From Candidatus Tayloriibacteriota bacterium (GTDB taxonomy: Bacteria > Patescibacteriota > Minisyncoccia > Phycocordibacterales > UBA10002), in contig SIBZ01000001.1 in NCBI GenBank assembly GCA_009694955.1, positions 63-64,062 on the forward strand: a stretch of DNA of 64,000 nt, given 5' to 3'. A program made the position numbers and the translations under genes. The notes beneath the pieces were generated by a model. The model searched no databases. It had not been told where the DNA came from and saw only the letters and a list, made by a program, of their open reading frames with translations. Shown here one piece after another: positions 800 to 57,184 of this stretch (its first letter is position 1; each line of letters opens with the position of its first letter).

Positions 800-3700
800 T
801 TAGTAAAGCAAATCACTCCCCCCTTTTTTCTTTCCCCTCTTCAATTCAGCCAAAATCTCCCTTAGGTATTCCTGTTCTTTTCTCATACCAGACAAGCTCA
901 TCTGTGACGGAAGTGCGTTTCGAATCGAATCCTCCCGGTTGACCGCAGTCTGATATTCGATATATCTCGCGTTGTACTCCTGCTTTCGCGTCTCACCGCG
1001 CTTTGAGTCTTCGACGAGGCGTTTTACGCGCGCGTGTATCATTTCCTGCTTTTCGCCTTCGGTCAGCGCGTGCTCATCTTCGGCAAGGGCGCGCACGAAA
1101 CTTGCGGGGAGCACTCCGTAATCCACGAGCTCCGGCTTGAAGTGGTCGTCCTTCGGGGTTAGTTCGATGTATTCCTGCGGGGTTAGTTTGGCGAACGCCG
1201 TCGACATCTTATTAACTAATTGGTCAATCGCACCTTGGTTTTTAACATTGAATTCCTTCAGCTCCTTCTCCGCCTCCTCCATTGCCTTCTCCGCTTTCGC
1301 CAGTCCGTGATACTCCGAAGAAAGTTGCGGTTCCAGGCTTGCTATTGCCGCTTTTGCGGCCTGGTCAGTTGGATTTTTGGCGAACTTTTCCTTTGCGTCT
1401 TTGTATTCAGTCCACCTCCGCAGAGCGTCTTTTTGGGCTTGTGTGGGTTCCTGCGCTGTAGCCAGACTCTGTCCCGCTAAAGTAACTCGGGATTGATGCT
1501 CTTTTGTCGCCCGTTCAAGCTCTTGTTCCGCCGCTGTAATTTGTACCTGTTGCGCCTGCTTCGCCAGCTCGAGTTTTTGCTCCGCCGCTGTAATTTGTAC
1601 CTGTTGCGCCTGCTTCGCCAGATCGCGTTTTTGCTCCGCCGCGGTAATTTGTACCTGTTGCGCCTGCTTCGCTCGGTCAAGTCCTTGCTGTGCGGTTGCG
1701 ATGGCAGGGGCTTGTTTTGCTTTCTCGGCATCCAGTTTCTTTTGCGCGTTTTCAACAAATCCTTGGAATATTTTGTTGTTCGGGTCTGTAGCAAGATCCG
1801 CCTTCTCTTCAGCGAGTCTTTTTTCTGCTGCCTCAATTTCAGGTGTTTTCCGCTCGGCTCGTTCAAGCTCTTGTTCCGCCACTGTGACGTTTCCTGCCGG
1901 TACTTTGGCCCGTTCAAGCTCTTGTTCCGCCACTGTGACGTTTCCTGCCGGTACTTTGGCCCGTTCAAGCTCTTGTTCCGCCGCTGTGACGTTTCCTGCC
2001 GGGACATTTGCCTGGTCAAGCTCTTTCTGAGCAGCTTCAATTTCCCTCACGTCTGCTTTCGCATCCGTGAGCGCCTTTTCCGCGGCGGCAACCTCCACAG
2101 GGTTGGGGTTTGCTGTCTGGGCCAGCTTGGAGGCATTTTCCGCTTCCGTTACGTTCTTGCGTGCATCCGCAAGAGCTATTTGATGTTGGCGTTGGTCTGT
2201 CCGAAGAGGGTGCAACTTCTCCCCCGCCCTCCGTGCGACATTTATGTGACCAATGGCGCGCCGAACCGAAGCGTCATGCTCGGACTCTTCGTACGCCTCT
2301 TCGGCAGACTTGCTCCCGCCGAATTTCGCATCCGCCATACGACCGGTTGTTTGTTCGCGGAAGAATTTGCCGACTGCGGTGTTTCCTCTGGGAGTCTGCG
2401 ACAGCCGTTCGTTGAGGTTACGCATACTGGTATATTTTAGCGCGCCGGCGCCAATTTTTGAAAACAAGCCGACGTGCTTATCATCCGCCATTTTCGCTGC
2501 GTTCTTCTCTTGCCACTTTTCCCCGAGATGCCCAAGCCCGAACCCCTGCATAGCGTGTCGTCCGACGAGGCCGGTCCCCTCTCCCTTCAGCTTGTGGCCC
2601 CATTCCATCATAAGGTCGCTTCCCCGAGCACCGAGCGATTGTGCGACGATGAGGCATCCGACCATTAAGCCGATGAGAATAATAAAGTTGAATACGATGA
2701 TAAGCGGAGCAGAAGTCGTTCCCGTCAGTGCCGCGGCGAATCCTTGCGTTCCGCTATTCGCGGCAATGCTCATCGACTGCTGAAAGGCGTCGGAGTTGAT
2801 GGTATACACCACGATGTAGGAAAGGAGGAGGTAGAGAGGCGCGAAAAACGCCTGGCTCCAGAGTTTGTTCCACCACGCGCTCGCAAGTCCCGACGCTCCG
2901 GGCAGAAGCCACGACACGAACGCGAGCGGGGAGAGGAGCATCAACATAATCAGTGTAATACCCCGCAAGACAAACATTATGGACGCCGCGAAGAAGACGA
3001 ACGCGGCGACAAGCATCAGCACCGAGCCGAAGAGGCCCATTAAGATGATGTTCAGCATATTGATGCCTCCGCCGATAAGGCTTGTGGTATTCGCCTGCTT
3101 TCCTCCCCCGTTCAGGCTGTTCGGGTTGTAAATCGTCTGGAGGCGGAGTCCTTGCATAAATGCTTCGGAGAGTCCCGCGTCCCCGCCCTGCCGATGTTCC
3201 GCTGGCGCTATGAGATTGTAGAAATGGAGCGCGGCTATATTGGACGCGTCAACCACCGCTTTGGTGATAAAGAGCGAAAAGTTGATGAAGATGGCGACGA
3301 GCACCATTTGTGCGAGAAACCCCCACGCCTGTTCGGCTTTGAGGCCGAGCGTAATCGAGATTCCACACCAGAGCGCGATGAAAATGAATACGATATTGGA
3401 TACATCGCGGATAACCTTCCATCCGATATCCACAATCGGAAGGTCATGCAAGAGACTGCTCATATTGAGCGTCCGCTCAAGTGTGATGTTAAGGAGTGCG
3501 CCGGATACCCAGAGTGTCCGTGCCGCGAGCCACATACCGAGGTTCGCAATCAAGGCGACACAGCCGTCGAGATTGATTGACGGGACGATACCAAGTCCGC
3601 TATATGCGACACAGCCTTTGGTCTGCGGAGGCTCCGAAGGCAGTTTACTCTTTCCGTTTTGCGGAGCGGTCGGAGACCCACCCTTTCCGTCGGGGGCGTA

Positions 3701-3856
3701 GCCTTTCTGGGCGGGAGGAGAGTCAAGTCCTGTCGCTCCCGGGTCAATACCCGGTATTCCTTGCGCGAGTACAAACGTCGTTGGCACAAAGAGTACCCCC
3801 GCAACAACGCTCGAGAGAAGGAGGCTCACTATACCGGTTGTGAAGAAGCGGTGCAT
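800..3856 (-). CDS. TrbL/VirB6-like polytopic membrane protein (T4SS inner-membrane component family) with a long C-terminal coiled-coil tail built from tandem repeats
   Basis: The 1018-aa ORF has an N-terminal signal/TM segment, then a block of 6 or more hydrophobic helices (…MLNIILMGLFGSVLMLVAAFVFFAASIMFVLRGITLIMLMLLSPLAFVSWLLPGASGLASAWWNKLW…) typical of TrbL/VirB6. The C-terminal ~450 aa are charged and helical, with 21-aa (QAQQVQITAAEQK.ELAK) and 17-aa (AKVPAGNVTVAEQELER) units each repeated 3 times. A 3-nt gap separates it from the upstream gene. Confidence 0.6.
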   Translation of the reverse strand: MHRFFTTGIVSLLLSSVVAGVLFVPTTFVLAQGIPGIDPGATGLDSPPAQKGYAPDGKGGSPTAPQNGKSKLPSEPPQTKGCVAYSGLGIVPSINLDGCVALIANLGMWLAARTLWVSGALLNITLERTLNMSSLLHDLPIVDIGWKVIRDVSNIVFIFIALWCGISITLGLKAEQAWGFLAQMVLVAIFINFSLFITKAVVDASNIAALHFYNLIAPAEHRQGGDAGLSEAFMQGLRLQTIYNPNSLNGGGKQANTTSLIGGGINMLNIILMGLFGSVLMLVAAFVFFAASIMFVLRGITLIMLMLLSPLAFVSWLLPGASGLASAWWNKLWSQAFFAPLYLLLSYIVVYTINSDAFQQSMSIAANSGTQGFAAALTGTTSAPLIIVFNFIILIGLMVGCLIVAQSLGARGSDLMMEWGHKLKGEGTGLVGRHAMQGFGLGHLGEKWQEKNAAKMADDKHVGLFSKIGAGALKYTSMRNLNERLSQTPRGNTAVGKFFREQTTGRMADAKFGGSKSAEEAYEESEHDASVRRAIGHINVARRAGEKLHPLRTDQRQHQIALADARKNVTEAENASKLAQTANPNPVEVAAAEKALTDAKADVREIEAAQKELDQANVPAGNVTAAEQELERAKVPAGNVTVAEQELERAKVPAGNVTVAEQELERAERKTPEIEAAEKRLAEEKADLATDPNNKIFQGFVENAQKKLDAEKAKQAPAIATAQQGLDRAKQAQQVQITAAEQKRDLAKQAQQVQITAAEQKLELAKQAQQVQITAAEQELERATKEHQSRVTLAGQSLATAQEPTQAQKDALRRWTEYKDAKEKFAKNPTDQAAKAAIASLEPQLSSEYHGLAKAEKAMEEAEKELKEFNVKNQGAIDQLVNKMSTAFAKLTPQEYIELTPKDDHFKPELVDYGVLPASFVRALAEDEHALTEGEKQEMIHARVKRLVEDSKRGETRKQEYNARYIEYQTAVNREDSIRNALPSQMSLSGMRKEQEYLREILAELKRGKKKGGSDLLY
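1512..1700 (-). repeat. Three near-perfect 63-bp tandem repeats inside the TrbL-like CDS, encoding the 21-aa coiled-coil unit
   Basis: Direct reading shows ...tgctccgccgctgtaatttgtacctgttgcgcctgcttcgccagctcgagttttt... three times with only a few substitutions. Confidence 0.85.
1857..2009 (-). repeat. Three near-perfect 51-bp tandem repeats inside the TrbL-like CDS, encoding the 17-aa unit
   Basis: cgttcaagctcttgttccgccactgtgacgtttcctgccggtactttggcc occurs three times. The third copy carries minor changes. Confidence 0.85.
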
Positions 3857-6793: not shown

Positions 6794-7064
6794 TGTGCTA
6801 CTAGTATAGCAGACGAGTGTGGATAAAAGGTGGAAAAACAGTGGATAAAAGAGAAAGGAGGGGGTAGTAAGCAGAAAGCAATTAAGCGAACTAAGAAAAA
6901 GAGGTTGTGCGGATATTCTTAATTAATCCGTTGTATAGTTGCTCGCCTTTGAATCACGAGACTTTTATCCTGTCATTCCAGCTTTTGCTGGAATGACAGA
7001 GGGCTAAGAGGACGGCTCGAACCTCGGTCTTTTTTCTTTCCTAAGAAGCTAGCAAGCTAAATAG

Positions 7065-9434: not shown

Positions 9435-10185
9435 CAAGTGCAAACCATTGTTCGCAAGAGACATTTTCCGCCCGCGCGGTTGCGGAGATGTCGCATTGAA
9501 TGAGTGTTTCTCTCGTCACGCGCAGATTCGAGGAAAGCAGTTTCCGCGGATGTGAGAAGCCTTTTTTGAGTGTTTCAAAAAAAATCTGCTCGCTGATACC
9601 CTCAAAAAAATTCTTCGATATCCCCTCTATCGCGATAATCCCCGAATCTACTTTCGGAGGAGGAGAAAAGGACCCCGCTTTCACGGTGTCGATGTATCTG
9701 GGCGCGCCGTACGCTTTGACGCTTATCGAGAGGATGCTCTCTTTCTTGTCGCTTGCGACTATTCTCTTCGCCACCTCTTTTTGCAAAAGTAGCACCATTG
9801 CCGAGGGCTGTCTTTCCGATTCCAAGAATTTTCGTATCAGAGCCCCTGTAATGTAATACGGTATGTTTGCAACGACTTTATAGGAAGGAGTCAGTAGTAA
9901 GTAGTTAGTAGGAGAAAGGGTAAGGATATCGGCGTGAATAAGGCGCAGTTTCCCCTCGGCGATTTCTCTCGCGAATTTTTGTGTGAGTACCGGTATAAGC
10001 CGGTCGTCTTTCTCAACCGCGACAACCTTCCCTGCCAGTGCAAGCAGAAGCGCGGTGAGCACACCTTCTCCAGGGCCGACCTCGAGCACGGTATCTTCAG
10101 GCGAAAGACGGCCCGCTTCGGCGATTTTGTGAAGTGCGCTTGCGGAGCGGAGAAAATGTTGACCTAGTGATTTCTTTTTGAACAT
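9409..10185 (-). CDS. rsmA: 16S rRNA (adenine1518/1519-N6)-dimethyltransferase RsmA/KsgA
   Basis: Contains the hallmark SLGQHFL N-terminal motif, the SAM-binding segment VLEVGPGEGVLT and a 258-aa length. Confidence 0.9.
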   Translation of the reverse strand: MFKKKSLGQHFLRSASALHKIAEAGRLSPEDTVLEVGPGEGVLTALLLALAGKVVAVEKDDRLIPVLTQKFAREIAEGKLRLIHADILTLSPTNYLLLTPSYKVVANIPYYITGALIRKFLESERQPSAMVLLLQKEVAKRIVASDKKESILSISVKAYGAPRYIDTVKAGSFSPPPKVDSGIIAIEGISKNFFEGISEQIFFETLKKGFSHPRKLLSSNLRVTRETLIQCDISATARAENVSCEQWFALARGLNRCR

Positions 10186-12996: not shown

Positions 12997-13097
12997 TTAG
13001 TATATTACTGACTAATATTTTCATATGCTCGCTCTTTTTGTGTACGTGTCCGCGACTTCTAACGGGACCATAGCGTGAACACTATAGCACGCATGAA

Positions 13098-13201
13098 GCA
13101 GTAAGTAGAAAGTAGTATGTAGTAAGTAGAAAGTAGTATGTAGTAAGTAGATTACAATTTAAATCCCGTTTTTTAGTCTTCACTACGTACTACTTTCTAC
13201 G
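13098..13201. repeat. A 21-bp tandem repeat (gtagtaagtagaaagtagtat, about 2.5 copies) followed by an inverted partial copy (cactacgtactactttctac); it can form a long imperfect hairpin
   Basis: Read directly from the sequence in the 694-bp divergent intergenic region between pcrA and the M23 peptidase gene. Confidence 0.7.
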
Positions 13202-14679: not shown

Positions 14680-14715
14680 AAAATAAGTAGTTAGCAGAAT
14701 GTAGTACGTAGAAAG

Positions 14716-16684: not shown

Positions 16685-16948
16685 CTACGAGTTCTGCAGC
16701 TGCTTCGGACGATACTGTAGGGCTTCCATGAGGTCACCGGTGGTGATCTCATCATGACCCTCCAGATCAGCAACGGTACGTGCGAGTTTGATGAGTCGGT
16801 GATAGGATCGGGCCGAGAGGTCCAGCTTCTTCGCGGAGAGGTTGAGCGCCGCTTTCACCTCATCGGAGAGCGGAAACTCCGTGTCGGCGATTATCGCGTC
16901 ATTTTCAAGATAACGGGTACAGAAGTACGTGTACTCATCATCGGCCAT
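16685..16948 (-). pseudogene. Stand-alone paralogous fragment of the ComM/YifB C-terminal domain (87 aa); either a gene fragment or a domesticated small protein
   Basis: The ORF ends ...LSDEVKAALNLSAKKLDLSARSYHRLIKLARTVADLEGHDEITTGDLMEALQYRPKQLQNS. That matches the C-terminus of the full ComM at 19291..20865 (…LSDDVKKALNLAAKKHDLSARSYHRLIKLARTVADLEGHDDVTTDDLMEALQYRPKQLTNS). The DNA is diverged by roughly 30%. Confidence 0.5.
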
Positions 16949-19290: not shown

Positions 19291-20865
19291 TCAGCTATTT
19301 GTCAGCTGCTTAGGGCGATACTGGAGAGCTTCCATTAGGTCGTCCGTCGTAACGTCGTCGTGACCTTCAAGGTCGGCGACCGTGCGGGCGAGTTTGATAA
19401 GGCGGTGATACGAACGGGCGGAAAGGTCGTGTTTTTTGGCAGCAAGGTTGAGCGCTTTTTTGACGTCATCTGAAAGCGGAATCGCGGTGGCGATATCACG
19501 AGGGCCGACGTCGCTGTTGGTTTTAAACGGGAGTTTCAGTTTCTTATATCGCTCTTCAGCCTTTGCTCTCGCTTTCGCGACCTTGCTCCGCACCTGTTCG
19601 CTCGTCTCCTCGCTTCCCCGCCCCTCGGTCAGCTTCTCGTGTTCCACAACCGATACTTCGGTCCACAAATCAATGCGGTCTACGATGGGACCGGAGATTT
19701 TCCGCTTGTAGCGGTCAATCTGGTGCTGGGCGCAGGAACAAGTCTTTCCCTTTACTCCGTTATTTCCGCACGGGCACGGGTTCATCGCGGTGATGAGTGT
19801 AAAATGCGCAGGAAACTGCGCCGAGCCTTTTACACGCGCGATGGAGACAACGTGGTCTTCAAGCGGTTGGCGGAGCGCGTCAATAACTCGGCGGTCAAAC
19901 TCCGGGAATTCATCGAGAAAGAGCACACCACGGTGCGCGAGCGTGATTTCACCGGGCTTCGGTATGGCACCTCCGCCGACAAGCGCGATATATGAGGCGG
20001 TGTGATGCGGAGCACGCAGTGGCGGGTAGGTGATGAGAGGTTCTTGCAGTGCTCCGGCGACCGAATGAATGCCGGTGACTTCAAGTGCTTGCTCAATGTC
20101 GAGCGGGGGCAGTATAGAAATGAAGGCCTTGGCGAGCAGTGTCTTCCCCGTGCCGGGCGGTCCCCACATCGCGATGTTGTGTCCGCCCGCAGCCGCGATT
20201 TCAAGTCCGCGCTTCGCGGTTCTTTGCCCTTTCACGTCGGCAAAGTCCACTTGATAATCACGCGCACCCACCTCAAATTTTGTCAGTGGGAAAGGCTTCA
20301 TCTTCCGCTTCTGAATAAACGGCCGTTCGTCATCGGGAAGAATATCTTTTTCCGTGAGGTGTGCGGAAAGGTCCCAGAGATTTTTCACACCGTACACATC
20401 TATACCGTCAATCAGCGCCGCCTCCTTCGCGTTTTCAAGCGGGACATATACTTCTTTAAAACCGGAACGCTTTGCTTCACGGACAATCGGAAGCACGCCA
20501 TCTATTCCCTGTACCATTCCGTCAAGCGAAAGTTCTCCTACGAACAATTTTCCCTTCACGTCAGCAGGCAAGCACTTAGAGGCGATGAGATACCCGACTG
20601 CCATCGGGAGGTCGAAGCTCGGACCCTCCTTCTTGGTGTCGGCCGGAGCGAGCGAAATCACGATTTTATGATTCTTTTGTTTGGGAGATTTGAAACCGGT
20701 GTTTTTGATTGCCGCACTGATGCGGTCCTTCGCTTCCGCGACTGCTTTGTCGGGAAGTCCCACAATCGAAAACGCGTTGAGACCCTTCGACAGGTCAACT
20801 TCAACGCGTACCAGAGAAGTCTTTAAGAGATGGACTTGAACGGAACTGACGGTCGCGAAAGACAT
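19291..20865 (-). CDS. comM: YifB/ComM-family Mg-chelatase-like AAA+ ATPase
   Basis: 524 aa, with an N-terminal Lon-like domain, Walker A (MWGPPGTGKT) and the conserved C-terminal domain. Confidence 0.9.
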   Translation of the reverse strand: MSFATVSSVQVHLLKTSLVRVEVDLSKGLNAFSIVGLPDKAVAEAKDRISAAIKNTGFKSPKQKNHKIVISLAPADTKKEGPSFDLPMAVGYLIASKCLPADVKGKLFVGELSLDGMVQGIDGVLPIVREAKRSGFKEVYVPLENAKEAALIDGIDVYGVKNLWDLSAHLTEKDILPDDERPFIQKRKMKPFPLTKFEVGARDYQVDFADVKGQRTAKRGLEIAAAGGHNIAMWGPPGTGKTLLAKAFISILPPLDIEQALEVTGIHSVAGALQEPLITYPPLRAPHHTASYIALVGGGAIPKPGEITLAHRGVLFLDEFPEFDRRVIDALRQPLEDHVVSIARVKGSAQFPAHFTLITAMNPCPCGNNGVKGKTCSCAQHQIDRYKRKISGPIVDRIDLWTEVSVVEHEKLTEGRGSEETSEQVRSKVAKARAKAEERYKKLKLPFKTNSDVGPRDIATAIPLSDDVKKALNLAAKKHDLSARSYHRLIKLARTVADLEGHDDVTTDDLMEALQYRPKQLTNS

Positions 20866-24552: not shown

Positions 24553-25094
24553 CGGATTTCCCTTCTTCCTCCTCCCATCTTTAGAGGGGAGGATTGAGGT
24601 GGGGTGGAGTTGTTCTCTGAAATGAAGACTTGAACCACTGTTCAAATCTCTGTTTCCAGAGACCAACCGTTACTGATAAGTACAAGCAGTCTAGCAGAAA
24701 ACTCTCAGTTTTTATATTTGACAAATCAATCTAAATATGTGAAAACAATACCGATTGTTCTATGAAAAACACCTTTTCGCCTGTCGTCTGGTTTTTTGCC
24801 AGTCTATACCTCATTTTTTCCTGCGTGTACTATGTAAGTCCTTTTTTAGGAACAGTACTGGTATTCGTATTCGCAATCCAATCAAAGGTTTTCCCGCAAC
24901 CTTTCAAATTAGGATTTGGTTTCGGTTGCGCAAGCGGACATGGCTGTGCAATTCTGCTTACTTTTTTCCCGACATTCTATTCACTTTCAGGATTCCATTC
25001 CCTTTTTCTGTTAGTGATCCTGTTCGGGACAATGACGTTCATTTCTCTCTTCTTCTTTCTGAAAATTGCGAATGAACCGTAAGTCCCCATTTCA

Positions 25095-37893: not shown

Positions 37894-37962
37894 CTGTCAT
37901 TCCACTGAAAAGTGGAATCCAGAGAAAGTAAGACTAGATTCCCGCCTACGCGGGAATGACAG
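37894..37962. repeat. Compound hairpin repeat of the GTCATTCC-N8-GGAATGAC family (ctgtcattccactgaaaagtggaatccag...attcccgcctacgcgggaatgacag)
   Basis: Other family members are at 6970..6999 and 51989..52015. The ATTCC(C)-N8-(G)GGAAT cores resemble neisserial dRS3-type repeats. Confidence 0.7.
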
Positions 37963-37979: not shown

Positions 37980-38735
37980 ATGGACCATCAAGAGCTGCTT
38001 CAGTCGCTTGGGTTATCGAAGAACGAGGCCAAGATATATGAAACCCTGCTTCGGCAGGGCGAGGTTGGCGTGGGTGTTATCTCGGAGAAATCCGGCGTAC
38101 ATCGTCGGAATGTGTACGATTCCCTTAATCGCCTTATGGAAAAGGGTCTTGTGTTTGAGGTTGTTGAGTCGGTAGAGAACAAATATCAGGCGTGCGAACC
38201 GAAGAAACTGACGGAAATCGTCATCGAGAAACTTGAGGCAGTTGATAAAGCACTACCGGAACTGGAAAAACTCCACTTCAGCACACCGTCCACTTATCGC
38301 GTACACACATACCGCGGCAAGGAAGGTTGGAAGCAATATATGCGCGATATCATCAAGACTGGCGAGCCGTTTTACTCCATCGGCGCGCAGGGAGCATGGC
38401 TTGATGAACGGGTAAAGTCGTTTATTCCGGCGTTTCTGCAACAATTAAAAACAAAAAAGATACCGATGCATCATTTGTTTGATTCCGACGTGAAGGCAAG
38501 CAACCATCCCATTCTCAAAGAGGTGGGGAAAGACTATAAATTCCTGCCGAAAAAGTACGCGACCACCTCCGGCGTTGATATCTTCGGGGACCATGTGAAC
38601 ATCATGCATCATCAATATCTTGGTCAAGTCGGCACCGACGACGAAATCACCTTTACTGTTATTGTGAACAAAAATCTCGCCGACTCCTTTCGCACGTGGT
38701 TCCAGTACATGTGGGACATGTGCCCAAGAAATTAG
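37980..38735 (+). CDS. TrmB-family transcriptional regulator (paralog 1)
   Basis: N-terminal TrmB wHTH (LGLSKNEAKIYETLLRQGEVGVGVISEKSGVHRRNVYDSLNRLMEKGLV). The C-terminus ends ...FRTWFQYMWDMCPRN. Confidence 0.7.
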   Translation: MDHQELLQSLGLSKNEAKIYETLLRQGEVGVGVISEKSGVHRRNVYDSLNRLMEKGLVFEVVESVENKYQACEPKKLTEIVIEKLEAVDKALPELEKLHFSTPSTYRVHTYRGKEGWKQYMRDIIKTGEPFYSIGAQGAWLDERVKSFIPAFLQQLKTKKIPMHHLFDSDVKASNHPILKEVGKDYKFLPKKYATTSGVDIFGDHVNIMHHQYLGQVGTDDEITFTVIVNKNLADSFRTWFQYMWDMCPRN

Positions 38736-41182: not shown

Positions 41183-41244
41183 ATCTCGCCGACTCATTTC
41201 GCACGTGGTTCCAGTACATGTGGGATATGTGTCCGAAAAATTAG
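41183..41244 (+). repeat. 62-bp direct repeat of the 3' end of the TrmB paralog-1 gene (38674..38735), with 5 mismatches. In frame it encodes ...LADSFRTWFQYMWDMCPKN.
   Basis: Direct DNA comparison: atctcgccgactcMtttcgcacgtggttccagtacatgtgggaYatgtgYccRaRaaattag. Confidence 0.85.
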
Positions 41245-41845: not shown

Positions 41846-41896
41846 CATTCCAACATTCTGCAGAATGTCAGAATAATAATTCTGTGGCCTAATTGT

Positions 41897-42511
41897 ATGG
41901 ATCAAAAGACCGCGATACGACAATTGAAAGAGTTGGAACGGCTGGGAGGAGTGAAAAAGATGCGGCTGGCGGCGGAGGGGTGGAGGGAGGAGTGGCAGAC
42001 GCTTATTTCAATACTCATGTCCGCGCGGACGCGCGATGAGGTGACGGTCATTGTGGCTGAGAATCTGTTCGCGGAATTTAGCACCCTTGATGCAATCGGC
42101 AAGGCAAACCCGCGCGATATCTCGAGAGTCATCGGACCGGTCAATTTCTTTCAGAATAAGACGAAGTATGTGATTGCGATTTCCAAGATCCTGCATGAAA
42201 AGCATGGTGGTAAACCGCCGCGCACCATTGAAGAGCTGATTACGCTTCCCGGTGTTGGCCGTAAGACCGCCAATGTGTTTCTCGCGGAGTACGGTGCGGA
42301 CGCAATTGGTGTGGACACGCATGTTTCCTATATTTCGCAAAAGCTTGGGTGGACGAGTCACACCGACCCCGACAAGATTGAGCAGGATTTACTCATGCTG
42401 TTTCCGCAAGCACAGTGGCGAGAACTTAACTCAACGCTGGTGCGTTTCGGGAAGACCTATCAGAGTAGGATAGAGAAAAACAGGTTGTTGGAGAAAATAG
42501 GAAAAATATAA
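41897..42511 (+). CDS. HhH-GPD DNA glycosylase, endonuclease III-like, without an Fe-S cluster loop
   Basis: LITLPGVGRKTANVFLAEYGADAIGVDTHVSYISQKLGW is an HhH-GPD motif with the catalytic Asp. There are no C-terminal cysteines. Confidence 0.8.
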   Translation: MDQKTAIRQLKELERLGGVKKMRLAAEGWREEWQTLISILMSARTRDEVTVIVAENLFAEFSTLDAIGKANPRDISRVIGPVNFFQNKTKYVIAISKILHEKHGGKPPRTIEELITLPGVGRKTANVFLAEYGADAIGVDTHVSYISQKLGWTSHTDPDKIEQDLLMLFPQAQWRELNSTLVRFGKTYQSRIEKNRLLEKIGKI

Positions 42512-42564
42512 ACACCACCACCCCGTCCCGCCGACGGGACACCCCTCCTCAACTGAGGAGGGGA
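42512..42564. repeat. 53-bp double-hairpin repeat (acaccaccaccccgtcccgccgacgggacacccctcctcaactgaggagggga), 100% identical to 46997..47049
   Basis: Hairpins gtcccg-ccga-cgggac and cccctcctc-aactg-aggagggg. Diverged relatives are at 51897..51950 and 56432..56476. Confidence 0.85.
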
Positions 42565-46461: not shown

Positions 46462-47334
46462 GTGAAACATACGAAAGCGACCATTTCTCTGTTCCAAAGG
46501 ACGGTAACCAGGTACTATCGAAAGTGCCGGAGAGATTTTCCGTGGAGGGAAACGCGCGACTCGTATGCGATTTTGGTTTCAGAAATAATGCTCCAACAGA
46601 CGCAAACTGACCGAGTGGTTCCGAAATATCTGGAATGGATGAAAACATTTCCGACACTTGAAGCGCTTGCGCAAGCCGGTGTGGGTGATGTACTAAAGAA
46701 ATGGCAAGGACTCGGTTACAATCGGCGCGTACTCAATCTGAAACGTTCCGTGGAAATGATTGTGAAAGAGTACAACGGAGTGTTTCCTAAAACGGTTAAG
46801 GAAATAGATACGCTTCCCGGCGTCGGGCCGTACACGGCAGGAGCTATCGGCGCCTTCGCGTTTGGAATTCCTTCCGTATTTATTGAGACGAATATCAGGA
46901 CAGTGTATTTGCATTTCTTTTTTAAGGGAAAGAGGAAGGTGAGAGATGAGGAGATTTTGGAGATAATAGAGAGGACATTGCCTACGACCAAAAAAAACAC
47001 CACCACCCCGTCCCGCCGACGGGACACCCCTCCTCAACTGAGGAGGGGAAGCATTCGGGAATGGTACAACGCACTGATGGACTACGGATCAATGTTGAAA
47101 AAGACTGAAGGAAACGAGAACACGCGTAGCGCGCAGTACACGAAACAGCCGGCCTTCAAAGGTTCGCGTAGAGAGGTGCGGGGAGCGATTCTTAAACGAG
47201 CAGCGGAAAAGAGGAAAGTAACCGTGGATGATTTCAAGCAGTACGTTTCTGCTCATCCGGTGGCTGATATTATGTCCGAATTAACAGAAGAAGGTTTCTT
47301 GAAAAAAGAAGGAAAAGCATTTAGGCTAGCATAG
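46462..47334 (+). CDS. HhH-GPD glycosylase, MutY/EndoIII-like N-terminal domain, lacking Fe-S cysteines; carries an in-frame copy of the 53-bp hairpin repeat
   Basis: ...FPWRETRDSYAILVSEIMLQQTQ...KKWQGLGYNRR...LPGVGPYTAGAI...REWYNALMDYG. The repeat at 46997..47049 is translated as TTTPSRRRDTPPQLRRG. Confidence 0.75.
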   Translation: MKHTKATISLFQRTVTRYYRKCRRDFPWRETRDSYAILVSEIMLQQTQTDRVVPKYLEWMKTFPTLEALAQAGVGDVLKKWQGLGYNRRVLNLKRSVEMIVKEYNGVFPKTVKEIDTLPGVGPYTAGAIGAFAFGIPSVFIETNIRTVYLHFFFKGKRKVRDEEILEIIERTLPTTKKNTTTPSRRRDTPPQLRRGSIREWYNALMDYGSMLKKTEGNENTRSAQYTKQPAFKGSRREVRGAILKRAAEKRKVTVDDFKQYVSAHPVADIMSELTEEGFLKKEGKAFRLA

Positions 47335-49295: not shown

Positions 49296-49327
49296 TACAA
49301 TATATTTGCGGTCGCAAATATATTGTA
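49296..49327. promoter_or_regulatory. 32-bp dyad-symmetric element tacaaTATATTTGCGgtCGCAAATATAttgta overlapping the -10 (tatact) of the PaaX-like gene; candidate operator
   Basis: A second copy at 49945..49976 differs only at a symmetric position pair (tacac...gtgta), which preserves the dyad. Confidence 0.6.
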
Positions 49328-49944: not shown

Positions 49945-49976
49945 TACACTATATTTGCGGTCGCAAATATAGTGTA
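49945..49976. promoter_or_regulatory. Second copy of the 32-bp dyad element, in the convergent intergenic region downstream of the PaaX-like gene
   Basis: tacacTATATTTGCGgtCGCAAATATAgtgta. Confidence 0.6.
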
Positions 49977-51827: not shown

Positions 51828-52026
51828 AAATTCAATATACTTCGCAGTTCGCTTCGGCGGACTGCGGGGTTTTTTATTTCTAATATAAAATAAGAAACAC
51901 CACCCCCTCTTCAATTCTCCCCCTCAACTGAGGGGGAGAGGAAGAGGAGAACACAAAACCCGCCGAGTGGCGGGTTTTGTGGAATTCTGGATTCCCGTTT
52001 CCACGGGAATGACAGAAAAGAAAAGA

Positions 52027-56302: not shown

Positions 56303-56479
56303 ATCGGTTACTTATGAGTAGGAAATAATAATCTACATATTGTACGCTGTTTTCAGGTTTCTGACATCGAAAGTTATCAACAGCATGGTACAATACGAAC
56401 TTACGAACACCGATACGAAATTACGAAAATAACACCCCACCTCAATCCTCCCCTCTGAAGAGGGGAGGAGGGGAAGAAA

Positions 56480-57184
56480 ATGAGATTACACAGATTTTTT
56501 GTTGAAGAACACATCGCTCCAGATATAAGGCTCGCAATTAAGGACGCGAAACTTCTTCATCAATGGCGAAACGTCCTCCGGCTGAAGGCGGGGAATGAGG
56601 TGATTCTCTTTGACGGGTTCGGTATGGACCACCGATGCGAACTCGCTTCGCTTGATAGAGGAGAGGCCATGTGCATTGTGCGCGAGTCTTCCAAAAGCGC
56701 GCCGCCGTCCACGCAACAATTTTTCCTCTTCGCATCACTCATCAAGAAAGAACGTTTCGAGTGGCTTCTCGAGAAAGCGACGGAGCTCGGCGTCGCGCAA
56801 ATACGGCCGGTGATTGCCGACCGCTCGGAGGTGAAGAAGTTCAATCTCGAACGTGCGAAGGATATTGTGAAAGAGGCGTCTGAGCAGTCGGGACGTGGAA
56901 GTCTTCCCGCGCTCTATAAGCCGATGGAACTACAGAATGTCTTTAAGGAGTACACGTATTTTAAGACGATGGCGTTCGACCCGCATGGTGAACTGTTCAA
57001 AAAAGACGGATGGAGCAAGGAAGAAAAAGTCGGAGCATTTATCGGGCCGGAAGGTGGGTGGAGCGCCCGCGAACTTGAGCTGTTCCGTCAAGAAAAAATC
57101 CCCGTCTATTCGCTAGGGGTTTCCACGCTTCGCGCCGAAACGGCGGCGGTGGCCGTGACGTCTCTTTTACTCCTACCGTCGTAA
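56480..57184 (+). CDS. rsmE: 16S rRNA (uracil1498-N3)-methyltransferase RsmE family
   Basis: MRLHRFFVEE...LHQWRNVLRLKAGNEVILFDGFG... N-terminal PUA-like domain and a SPOUT C-terminal domain. The SD lies inside the upstream hairpin repeat (aggaggggaagaaaATG). Confidence 0.85.
   Translation: MRLHRFFVEEHIAPDIRLAIKDAKLLHQWRNVLRLKAGNEVILFDGFGMDHRCELASLDRGEAMCIVRESSKSAPPSTQQFFLFASLIKKERFEWLLEKATELGVAQIRPVIADRSEVKKFNLERAKDIVKEASEQSGRGSLPALYKPMELQNVFKEYTYFKTMAFDPHGELFKKDGWSKEEKVGAFIGPEGGWSARELELFRQEKIPVYSLGVSTLRAETAAVAVTSLLLLPS

Follow-up and report, generated by a model that had tools for sequence, protein, structure and literature searches.

A repeat of probable intrastrand-triplex type read in frame within a clusterless MutY gene of a candidate-phyla-radiation bacterium

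The stretch of Candidatus Tayloriibacteriota contig SIBZ01000001.1 analysed here (the window, 64 kb) carries an EndoIII-like (nth-like) HhH-GPD gene at 41897-42511, assigned by domain and family matches and encoding 204 residues without a cysteine, and, on the same plus strand at 46462-47334, an intact gene with a GTG start for a clusterless MutY (MutYX) of 290 residues, in which Pfam recognises HhH-GPD and HHH domains. Both are associated with a 53-nucleotide (nt) repeat, ACACCACCACCCCGTCCCGCCGACGGGACACCCCTCCTCAACTGAGGAGGGGA, which occurs exactly twice in the window, both times on the plus strand, and not once in 100 shuffles. The copy at 42512-42564 begins immediately downstream of the nth-like stop codon; its exact match at 46997-47049 lies inside the MutYX gene, where it is translated as (N)TTTPSRRRDTPPQLRRG, the open reading frame (ORF) running through without stop or frameshift. 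A preliminary description of the window had reported these two identical copies, their positions and the unbroken frame, all of which we find as described, and had taken the repeat for a double hairpin with a possible link to HhH-GPD glycosylases. From the evidence below, the repeat is probably a member of the G/C-rich class of potential intrastrand triplexes, and a tolerated passenger in the MutYX gene.

The host protein is closest to PDB entry 8uuc, both in sequence (E 2.8e-60) and as the top fold match. The entry is MutYX from an Eggerthella species, a clusterless adenine glycosylase that does without an iron-sulfur (Fe-S) cluster and carries a small C-terminal X domain (PMC12631127). The window protein has the same HhH-GPD catalytic domain and C-terminal X domain, and it likewise lacks the Fe-S cysteines: it contains one cysteine and the nth-like protein none, so that the set of four is absent from both, as the preliminary description had stated. 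Residues Q229, R237 and Y208 align with Gln201, Arg209 and Tyr180 of PMC12631127 (with an inferred offset of 2 in chain numbering) and are invariant or nearly so among the best homologues (the 120 top sequences). With an X domain that carries residues aligned with the Gln and Arg contacts to 8-oxoguanine (8-oxoG), the protein belongs to MutYX. Judged by alignment, the active-site and 8-oxoG-recognition residues examined are kept, as is, in the orthologues, the N-terminal extension; the organism is a member of the Parcubacteria group, and its closest named homologues are from GW2011_GWA2_49_9 and from Candidatus Taylorbacteria.

The window protein and 8UUC differ between helices H10 and H11. 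The match to the TIGR01084 mutY model stops at residue 178, right where the repeat begins, and the alignment with 8uuc covers residues 22-175 and 198-287, leaving 2 residues of 8uuc in between against 22 here. From H10 to H11, the conserved REWY..ALMDYG helix, 62 of the 120 homologues have 8 residues (for example LDTKNPRE or LPKRKIRE, the base state) and 74 have 7-10, against 28 in the window protein; the orthologues retrieved from genome contigs were mostly distant relatives (41-50% identity) free of an insert, and were used as base state only. The segment is thus an insertion, as had been supposed, although its net length is not 53 but 60 nt: together, an A7 leader and the 53-nt unit form codons 177-196 (46990-47049, plus strand), which read KKNTTTPSRRRDTPPQLRRG. 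The A8 tract said to abut the repeat is indeed present, at 46990-46997. In the AlphaFold model, obtained with the insert in place, the predicted local distance difference test score (pLDDT) averages 85.6 and falls below 50 only at residues 177-195, between confident helices at 162-172 and 198-216; the insert is thus modelled as a disordered loop between H10 and H11. The element adds 20 residues to this surface loop, probably as a passenger; reading frame, predicted fold and the functional residues examined are all retained, and the insert may well be neutral for MutYX.

The 53-mer folds into two hairpins, GTCCCG/CGGGAC and CCCCTCCTC/GAGGAGGGG, the energy being -29.8 kcal/mol for the RNA (z -6.0) and -16.9 for the DNA (z -5.5). 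The double hairpin of the preliminary description is therefore real but incomplete, since a third block, CACCACCCC, had been overlooked; the unit is a three-block, triplex-type motif with the layout CACCACCCC - loop with small hairpin - CCCCTCCTC - AACT - GAGGAGGGG. In the genic copy the third block (H) occupies 47001-47009, loop 2, with the small hairpin GTCCCG-CCGA-CGGGAC and one further A seen in the DNA and RNA folds, 47010-47026, and the main hairpin 47027-47048, with the pyrimidine arm (Y, CCCCTCCTC) at 47027-47035, loop 1 (AACT) at 47036-47039 and the purine arm (R, GAGGAGGGG) at 47040-47048, all on the plus strand. The corresponding blocks of the intergenic copy are H 42516-42524, loop 2 42525-42541, Y 42542-42550, loop 1 42551-42554 and R 42555-42563 (plus strand), followed by the GGAAGAAG tail of the family. 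At 9 of 9 positions of the genic copy, H is R read 5' to 3' with G replaced by C and A by A or T. On the G-rich strand the unit thus reads CCCCTCCTC-AGTT-GAGGAGGGG-(loop)-GGGGTGGTG (the full oligonucleotide is 5'-CCCCTCCTCAGTTGAGGAGGGGTGTCCCGTCGGCGGGACGGGGTGGTG-3'), where GGGGTGGTG, the complement of H, is the reverse-Hoogsteen domain. This last, G/T-rich block, which follows the pyrimidine arm, a loop, the purine arm and the second loop, would lie antiparallel on the purine arm, placing G.G-C or T.A-T at all 9 positions. The folding programs used consider Watson-Crick pairs only; the triplex is predicted from the block layout, and its formation in cells is likewise a prediction.

The window holds this motif at further sites. 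The preliminary description had pointed to diverged relatives at about 51897-51950 and 56432-56476, which are both real. The first is a short-loop motif, CACCCCCTCT-TCAAT-TCTCCCCCTC-AACT-GAGGGGGAGA, at 51901-51939 on the plus strand, inside a 68-nt insertion (51882-51949); the second is CACCCCACCT-CAA-TCCTCCCCTC-TGAA-GAGGGGAGGA with a purine tail at 56433-56478 (plus strand), and ends 1 nt upstream of the ATG of an rsmE-like gene at 56480. The fifth copy, decayed by one mismatch in the R arm, occupies 24570-24606 of the minus strand; it belongs to the 5' leader of a PNPase-like gene (ATG 24549-24547) and ends about 20 nt upstream of that start codon. All five follow the rule that relates H to R. 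Loop 2 is 17 nt long and bears a hairpin in the two perfect copies, where loop 1 has 4 nt; the copies at 51901, 56433 and 24606 have short loops of 3-5 nt.

The assignment is carried by the way in which the third block follows the hairpin arm. Scanning metagenomes with a pattern drawn from the window copies matched at least 120 stretches, on contigs spanning 30-70% G+C, whose layout is constant beyond the pattern: (C)ACCACCCC, a few bases or a variable small hairpin, then CCCCTCCTC-AACT-GAGGAGGGG. The rule also holds for hairpins that the pattern had not picked. Among 99 distinct homopyrimidine/homopurine hairpins of this kind in 2.0 Mb of related and metagenomic DNA, the third block, sought within 50 nt, is perfect in 72 and has at most one mismatch in 93, compared to 2 and 19 when the flanks of the same hairpins are shuffled. 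Across the loci there are 28 distinct purine arms, each paired with its own matching third block, and in none of 291 cross pairs does a third block fit another arm of equal length. Where the arm has an A-T pair, the third block carries A in 53 cases and T in 45; as both are used, the pattern is that of the purine motif of DNA, and not of the pyrimidine motif by which RNA or the C-rich strand would form a triplex. The hairpin in loop 2 varies in sequence among copies, with its pairing kept (mean -8.3 kcal/mol, against -3.9 in shuffles; n=52).

Among the G/C-rich intrastrand triplex motifs, which older work called BoxC or PIT elements, class II is defined by a pyrimidine arm followed by a purine arm and then a reverse-Hoogsteen block (Holder et al. 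2015, PMC4666352), and this order is found in all five window copies; both perfect copies use only the allowed triads (C-G-G, T-A-T, T-A-A) at 9 of 9 positions. Like the BoxC, PIT and TMECO repeats of E. coli and other Proteobacteria, they place three blocks of 9-10 nt on one strand (Y - loop - R - loop - R'), follow this triad rule, are G/C-rich, come in many copies of very high identity and occupy loci that vary between close strains, and no associated transposase has been found for them, in the window among the ORFs scanned; such motifs have been linked to locally rearranged loci (PMC4666352). They differ in sequence (CCCCTCCTC/GAGGAGGGG/GGGGTGGTG, against CCCTCNCCC/GGGNGAGGG/GGGNGAGGG in TMECO) and depart from the TMECO consensus, CCCTCNCCC N3-6 GGGNGAGGG N3 GGGNGAGGG, with arms CCCCTCCTC, TCTCCCCCTC and TCCTCCCCTC; TMECO-like arms were seen only in proteobacterial and peat loci. 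They also differ in host, here a candidate-phyla-radiation bacterium, and in location, since TMECO is reported as always intergenic (PMC4666352), whereas the class seen in the window is found in frame within genes as well. Finally, the second loop of TMECO has 3 nt, whereas that of the perfect window copies has 17 and its own covarying hairpin. The hairpin inside the second loop is a new feature relative to the known class, and one found in a candidate-phyla-radiation genome; it would mark a subfamily to which this small hairpin has been added.

Separately, contigs L122, L124, L139-L141, L158, L160, L174 and L186, from peat, carry a unit of about 90 nt (CGGGGTGGTTATCTCC...GTCGCAATCAGCACCACCCCCTACCCCCTCCTCAACTGAGGAGGGGAGCATTTTCAT), apparently two triplex-type units in opposite orientation that resemble a REPIN doublet.

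Several points weigh against this assignment or against the passenger role. The 17-nt second loop of the perfect copies exceeds the loop lengths by which the class has been defined, 1-6 nt in ITxF and 0-10 nt in Hoyne et al. 2000 (PMC4666352), within which the three short-loop copies fall; for TMECO, a stable triplex was not shown by in vivo footprinting (PMC4666352); the insert, which might impair MutYX, abuts helix H11, the stabiliser of the catalytic helix H9 (PMC12631127); and both the count of copies and the search for a mobilising enzyme are confined to the window. Further, all five window copies run in the direction of the genes around them, and at low-GC loci an ORF starts within 40 nt after the purine arm in 33 of 79 cases, compared to 19 of 79 in the reverse orientation, which hints at a role in RNA or at ribosome-binding sites that an element acting purely as DNA could do without.

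These last two observations are what one would expect of a portable RNA module on which selection acts in the transcript, serving in 5' leaders as a hairpin and Shine-Dalgarno donor and at 3' ends as a protecting hairpin, with the genic copy as a by-product. The two leader copies, 56433-56478 and 24570-24606, with their closeness to start codons, and the copy at 42512, which adjoins a stop codon, fit the same picture. We nevertheless regard this explanation as unlikely. The copy in the 68-nt insertion has convergent terminators on either side and no gene to serve; high-GC loci have no orientation bias (50 against 53); and A is as frequent as T in the third block, unlike in a pyrimidine-motif triplex of RNA, while purine-motif triplexes cannot form in RNA (PMC4666352). 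Rfam searched at E <= 1 returned only sub-threshold chance matches (serC leader, P9, Phe leader), and the PIT elements of E. coli showed neither promoter nor terminator activity (PMC4666352). If the units are instead triplex-type passengers, their intergenic copies would sit where hairpins tend to be tolerated, after stop codons and in 5' leaders, and in the leaders the purine arm or the tail could supply a Shine-Dalgarno-like sequence. That copies are tolerated both in coding and in ribosome-binding-site positions, as proposed in the preliminary description, is borne out by the in-frame and leader copies.

Gain and loss of units can be followed between close strains. Contig L001, from another sample and 96-98% identical to the window across 5 kb, is empty at 51882-51949, where the window has the 68-nt insert with its short-loop unit; this pair of filled and empty sites has no clear duplication, only an ambiguous AACAC being shared. 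Within the MutYX gene, proteins P0018 (contig L207) and P0030 (L208) are identical except for a 33-residue insert, present in L207 and absent from L208, and a few flanking changes; the contigs are 100% identical over 2257 nt on one side and 99.5% over 3284 nt on the other, so that the divergence is limited to about 180 nt around the insert. Presence and absence of the family, which had been suggested as a check, are thus seen at two sites. In the same gene the window and L001 are identical over the 102 nt upstream of the loop and near-identical downstream, but over some 170 nt spanning the loop L001 has another sequence, with a different unit, which resembles the allele of the more distant L002. 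The confinement of divergence to tracts of about 170-180 nt points to exchange of alleles by homologous recombination, in agreement with the reported association of such motifs with rearranged loci (PMC4666352).

As an observation apart, a triplex-type unit is found between the MutYX stop and an RNHCP-domain gene in L207 (2660-2703), L208 (3819-3862) and L002 (5884-5924), in the first two ending 11 nt before the ATG of that gene; the window has no unit at this position.

The identity of the two perfect copies had been taken to imply recent transposition or gene conversion. Related elements share this 3' junction in contigs L084 and L207, whose proteins are 57-60% identical to that of the window, and the insertion in the MutYX gene must thus be old; 100% identity to a copy 4.5 kb away then fits gene conversion within the genome better than fresh transposition, and of the two proposed causes we favour conversion. 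In each genome the genic copy takes after the intergenic ones: in the window both kinds show an AACT loop together with the GTCCCG hairpin, and the copies in L207 have in common an ATCC loop and the hairpin GCCCTAACGGGC. Copies are gained and lost between close strains; within a genome they appear to be homogenised by gene conversion, and between strains they move on short tracts of homologous recombination.

Filled and empty sites without an obvious target duplication would equally be left by a tyrosine (HUH) transposase that recognises hairpins and moves single-stranded DNA, and the units might thus be miniature elements derived from repetitive extragenic palindromes (REP, REPIN) or from IS200/IS605, their triplex symmetry being incidental. 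The units are indeed hairpin-based and present in multiple, near-identical copies, and on some peat contigs they form inverted pairs like REPIN doublets. REP sequences are recognised by an imperfect palindrome with a conserved GTAG-type head beside it. No such head is found here: the 5' block, CACCACCCC, covaries with the arm and tracks it over 28 arm types, which recognition of a guide sequence by one enzyme does not predict, and the two hairpins of a unit are unrelated to each other. Thus, while REP and REPIN elements with their REP-associated tyrosine transposase (RAYT) resemble the window units in being short, GC-rich, hairpin-forming, abundant, mostly intergenic and sometimes arranged as inverted doublets (PMC3116915), the window units lack the head, and have a 5' block that covaries with the arm as a mirror repeat, and no RAYT was seen in the window. 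A scan of window ORFs, several of them without any Pfam match, detected no Pfam transposase family; viral contigs gave 11 hits in 2.9 million, lending no support to an origin from phages; and the A-rich leader and the GGAAGAGG tail are not inverted repeats, which, with the lack of a clear target-site duplication, sets the units apart from miniature inverted-repeat transposable elements. A comparison of the four translated frames of the unit, joined, with a protein collection gave no match, the query being short and biased in composition, and a literature search on the repeat sequence and its peptides yielded nothing relevant. Transposition of this kind seems improbable to us as the explanation of the units.

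The class enters coding sequence well beyond MutYX. On metagenome contigs it is found in frame in nine unrelated, Pfam-confirmed families (class-V aminotransferase, RpiB, alanyl-tRNA synthetase, LigD, IMP dehydrogenase, ATP synthase gamma, asparagine synthase, GT1 glycosyltransferase and GH3), in both orientations and in both open frames. By our translation 4 of the 6 reading frames of the unit are free of stops, and this, together with permissive loops, means that a frame filter can explain its survival within genes. In the remainder of the window, copies adjoin PNPase-like, rsmE-like and HU genes. At the 3' ends of nth orthologues from three related genomes there are three different, unrelated hairpins, so that this position merely hosts some hairpin. 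The suggested targeting of HhH-GPD genes is rejected on these grounds; the association is probably a coincidence, which the preliminary description had itself allowed for.

In-frame palindromes that leave their genes intact are otherwise known from Rickettsia. The Rickettsia palindromic elements (RPEs) likewise reside in unrelated housekeeping genes and are translated into extra peptide segments that were judged compatible with the fold (PMC10969869). They are, however, about 100-150 bp long and confined to Rickettsia (Ogata et al. 2000, as summarised in PMC10969869), whereas the window units have about 35-60 nt; the insertion in MutYX leaves the ORF intact as an RPE does, but at 53-68 nt the inserted DNA falls short of the RPE length of about 150 bp (PMC10969869). 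Moreover, RPEs are defined by a conserved family sequence and the window units by their three-block symmetry, on contigs of 30-70% GC.

The surroundings of the nth-like gene offer some observations of their own. In some Patescibacteria the MutYX gene lies directly upstream of the EndoIII-like gene (L031 3713-4959, L052 854-2102), whereas three genes separate the two in the window; about 420 nt that seemed to be extra sequence within the MutYX gene of L031 and L052 were rejected as an insertion, as the nth gene simply adjoins downstream. About 20 nt upstream of the nth-like start, at 41847-41874, the window has the palindrome ATTCCAACATTCTGCAGAATGTCAGAAT, kin of which are translated as HSNILKNVGMS in the MutYX loop of L083 and L086. 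A second family of hairpin repeats (CTGGATTCCCGC...GCGGGAATGACAG) is intergenic in the window (6971-6999, 37934-37962 and 51987-52015), and has a copy in L083 (5033-5061) directly after the nth-like stop, the spot taken in the window by the triplex-type unit.

Returning to the H10-H11 loop, segments of 12-60 residues are present in about 45 of the 120 homologues, nearly all of these within the roughly 53 closest relatives. Among the 120, the expansions in other proteins belong to at least four unrelated repeat types: units like that of the window (peptides TPSLISPSKEGE, TPPRLRHPSSSEEGR and PLLRKEGR), a perfect palindrome (HSNILKNVGMS), a hairpin with a 17-bp stem (KVRPFSRYKVEPCS) and a further type (AKHPMLGDFKHRVL). 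Strong hairpins, some of them nested, are found at the loop in all 6 orthologue DNAs examined. On these comparisons, the MutYX loop is a recurrent landing site for several repeat families in Parcubacteria.

It might instead be argued that the extra 20 residues are a selected addition to MutYX, a DNA- or partner-binding arm that offsets the lost Fe-S loop, and that the intergenic copy derives from the gene: the peptide is rich in Arg and Pro and lies next to H11, close to the part of the protein that stands in for the Fe-S cluster loop, and some expansion is present at the site in many close homologues. Yet these expansions are unrelated in sequence over their range of 12-60 residues, each insert examined as DNA is a hairpin or triplex-type repeat, several are also found outside genes, and near-identical alleles exist with and without the insert. 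Other proteins contain the repeat read in different frames and in the opposite orientation. As the segment is also modelled as disordered, and the crystallised MutYX works with 2 residues here, such a selected role is very unlikely.

A chimaera by which repeat-driven misassembly placed the intergenic unit into the gene, conceivable for identical copies 4.5 kb apart in a metagenome assembly, is hardly credible, because three contigs of the source sample yielded the same 248-residue product, the insert leaves the reading frame exactly as it was, and the independent samples behind L084 and L207 carry related inserts at the same junction.

Taken as triplex-type passengers, the units bear on several questions. 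Although triplex-type repeats were recognised in E. coli decades ago, no function has been assigned to them, and experiments did not show their folding in cells; a third block that tracks 28 arms exactly is comparative evidence that the symmetry is kept by selection or by the process from which the units originate. The class reaches beyond intergenic DNA and beyond Proteobacteria and, being read in frame in housekeeping enzymes as RPEs are, supplies proteins with new loops. When predicted proteins are annotated, peptides such as TPPQLRRG, HPSSTEEG and SPSKEGE should be taken as marks of these repeats, and not of homology. The variable loop of MutYX further provides a natural set of insert-bearing and insert-free alleles by which the tolerance of the enzyme can be gauged. 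A far broader proposal, which we consider speculative and decidedly unlikely, would see in the three-block units a structure-defined class of recombinogenic or mobile DNA across many lineages, selected for its ability to form triplexes and routinely colonising coding sequence, with the MutYX loop as a switchable repair cassette. If this were true, loop alleles of MutYX would modulate repair capacity, and hence mutation rate, in candidate-phyla-radiation populations, and the class would seed disordered loops in proteins.

The window contains further repeats unconnected with these units. Two copies of a 62-nt repeat, 92% identical and both ending in TAG, lie at 38674-38735 and 41183-41244, one forming the 3' end of a TrmB-like gene and the other located just after a sodium:solute symporter gene. 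Two near-identical perfect palindromes of 32 nt (TACAATATATTTGCG..CGCAAATATATTGTA), at 49296-49327 and 49945-49976, flank the ORF of a PaaX-like regulator and resemble operators. Segments of 190 nt at 16697-16886 and 19303-19492 are 75% identical, the 87-residue ORF at 16688-16948 being a stray copy of the C-terminal domain that the gene at 19294-20865, which is Mg-chelatase/ComM-like, encodes. Tandem repeats of 51 and 54 nt fill 1494-2043 inside an ORF of 1018 residues (803-3856, minus strand), which, like the 977-residue ORF beside it, has no Pfam match. Lastly, runs of TAGTAAGTAG-like words with a period of 14 nt occur in intergenic regions at 9867-9911, 13092-13150 and 14681-14711.

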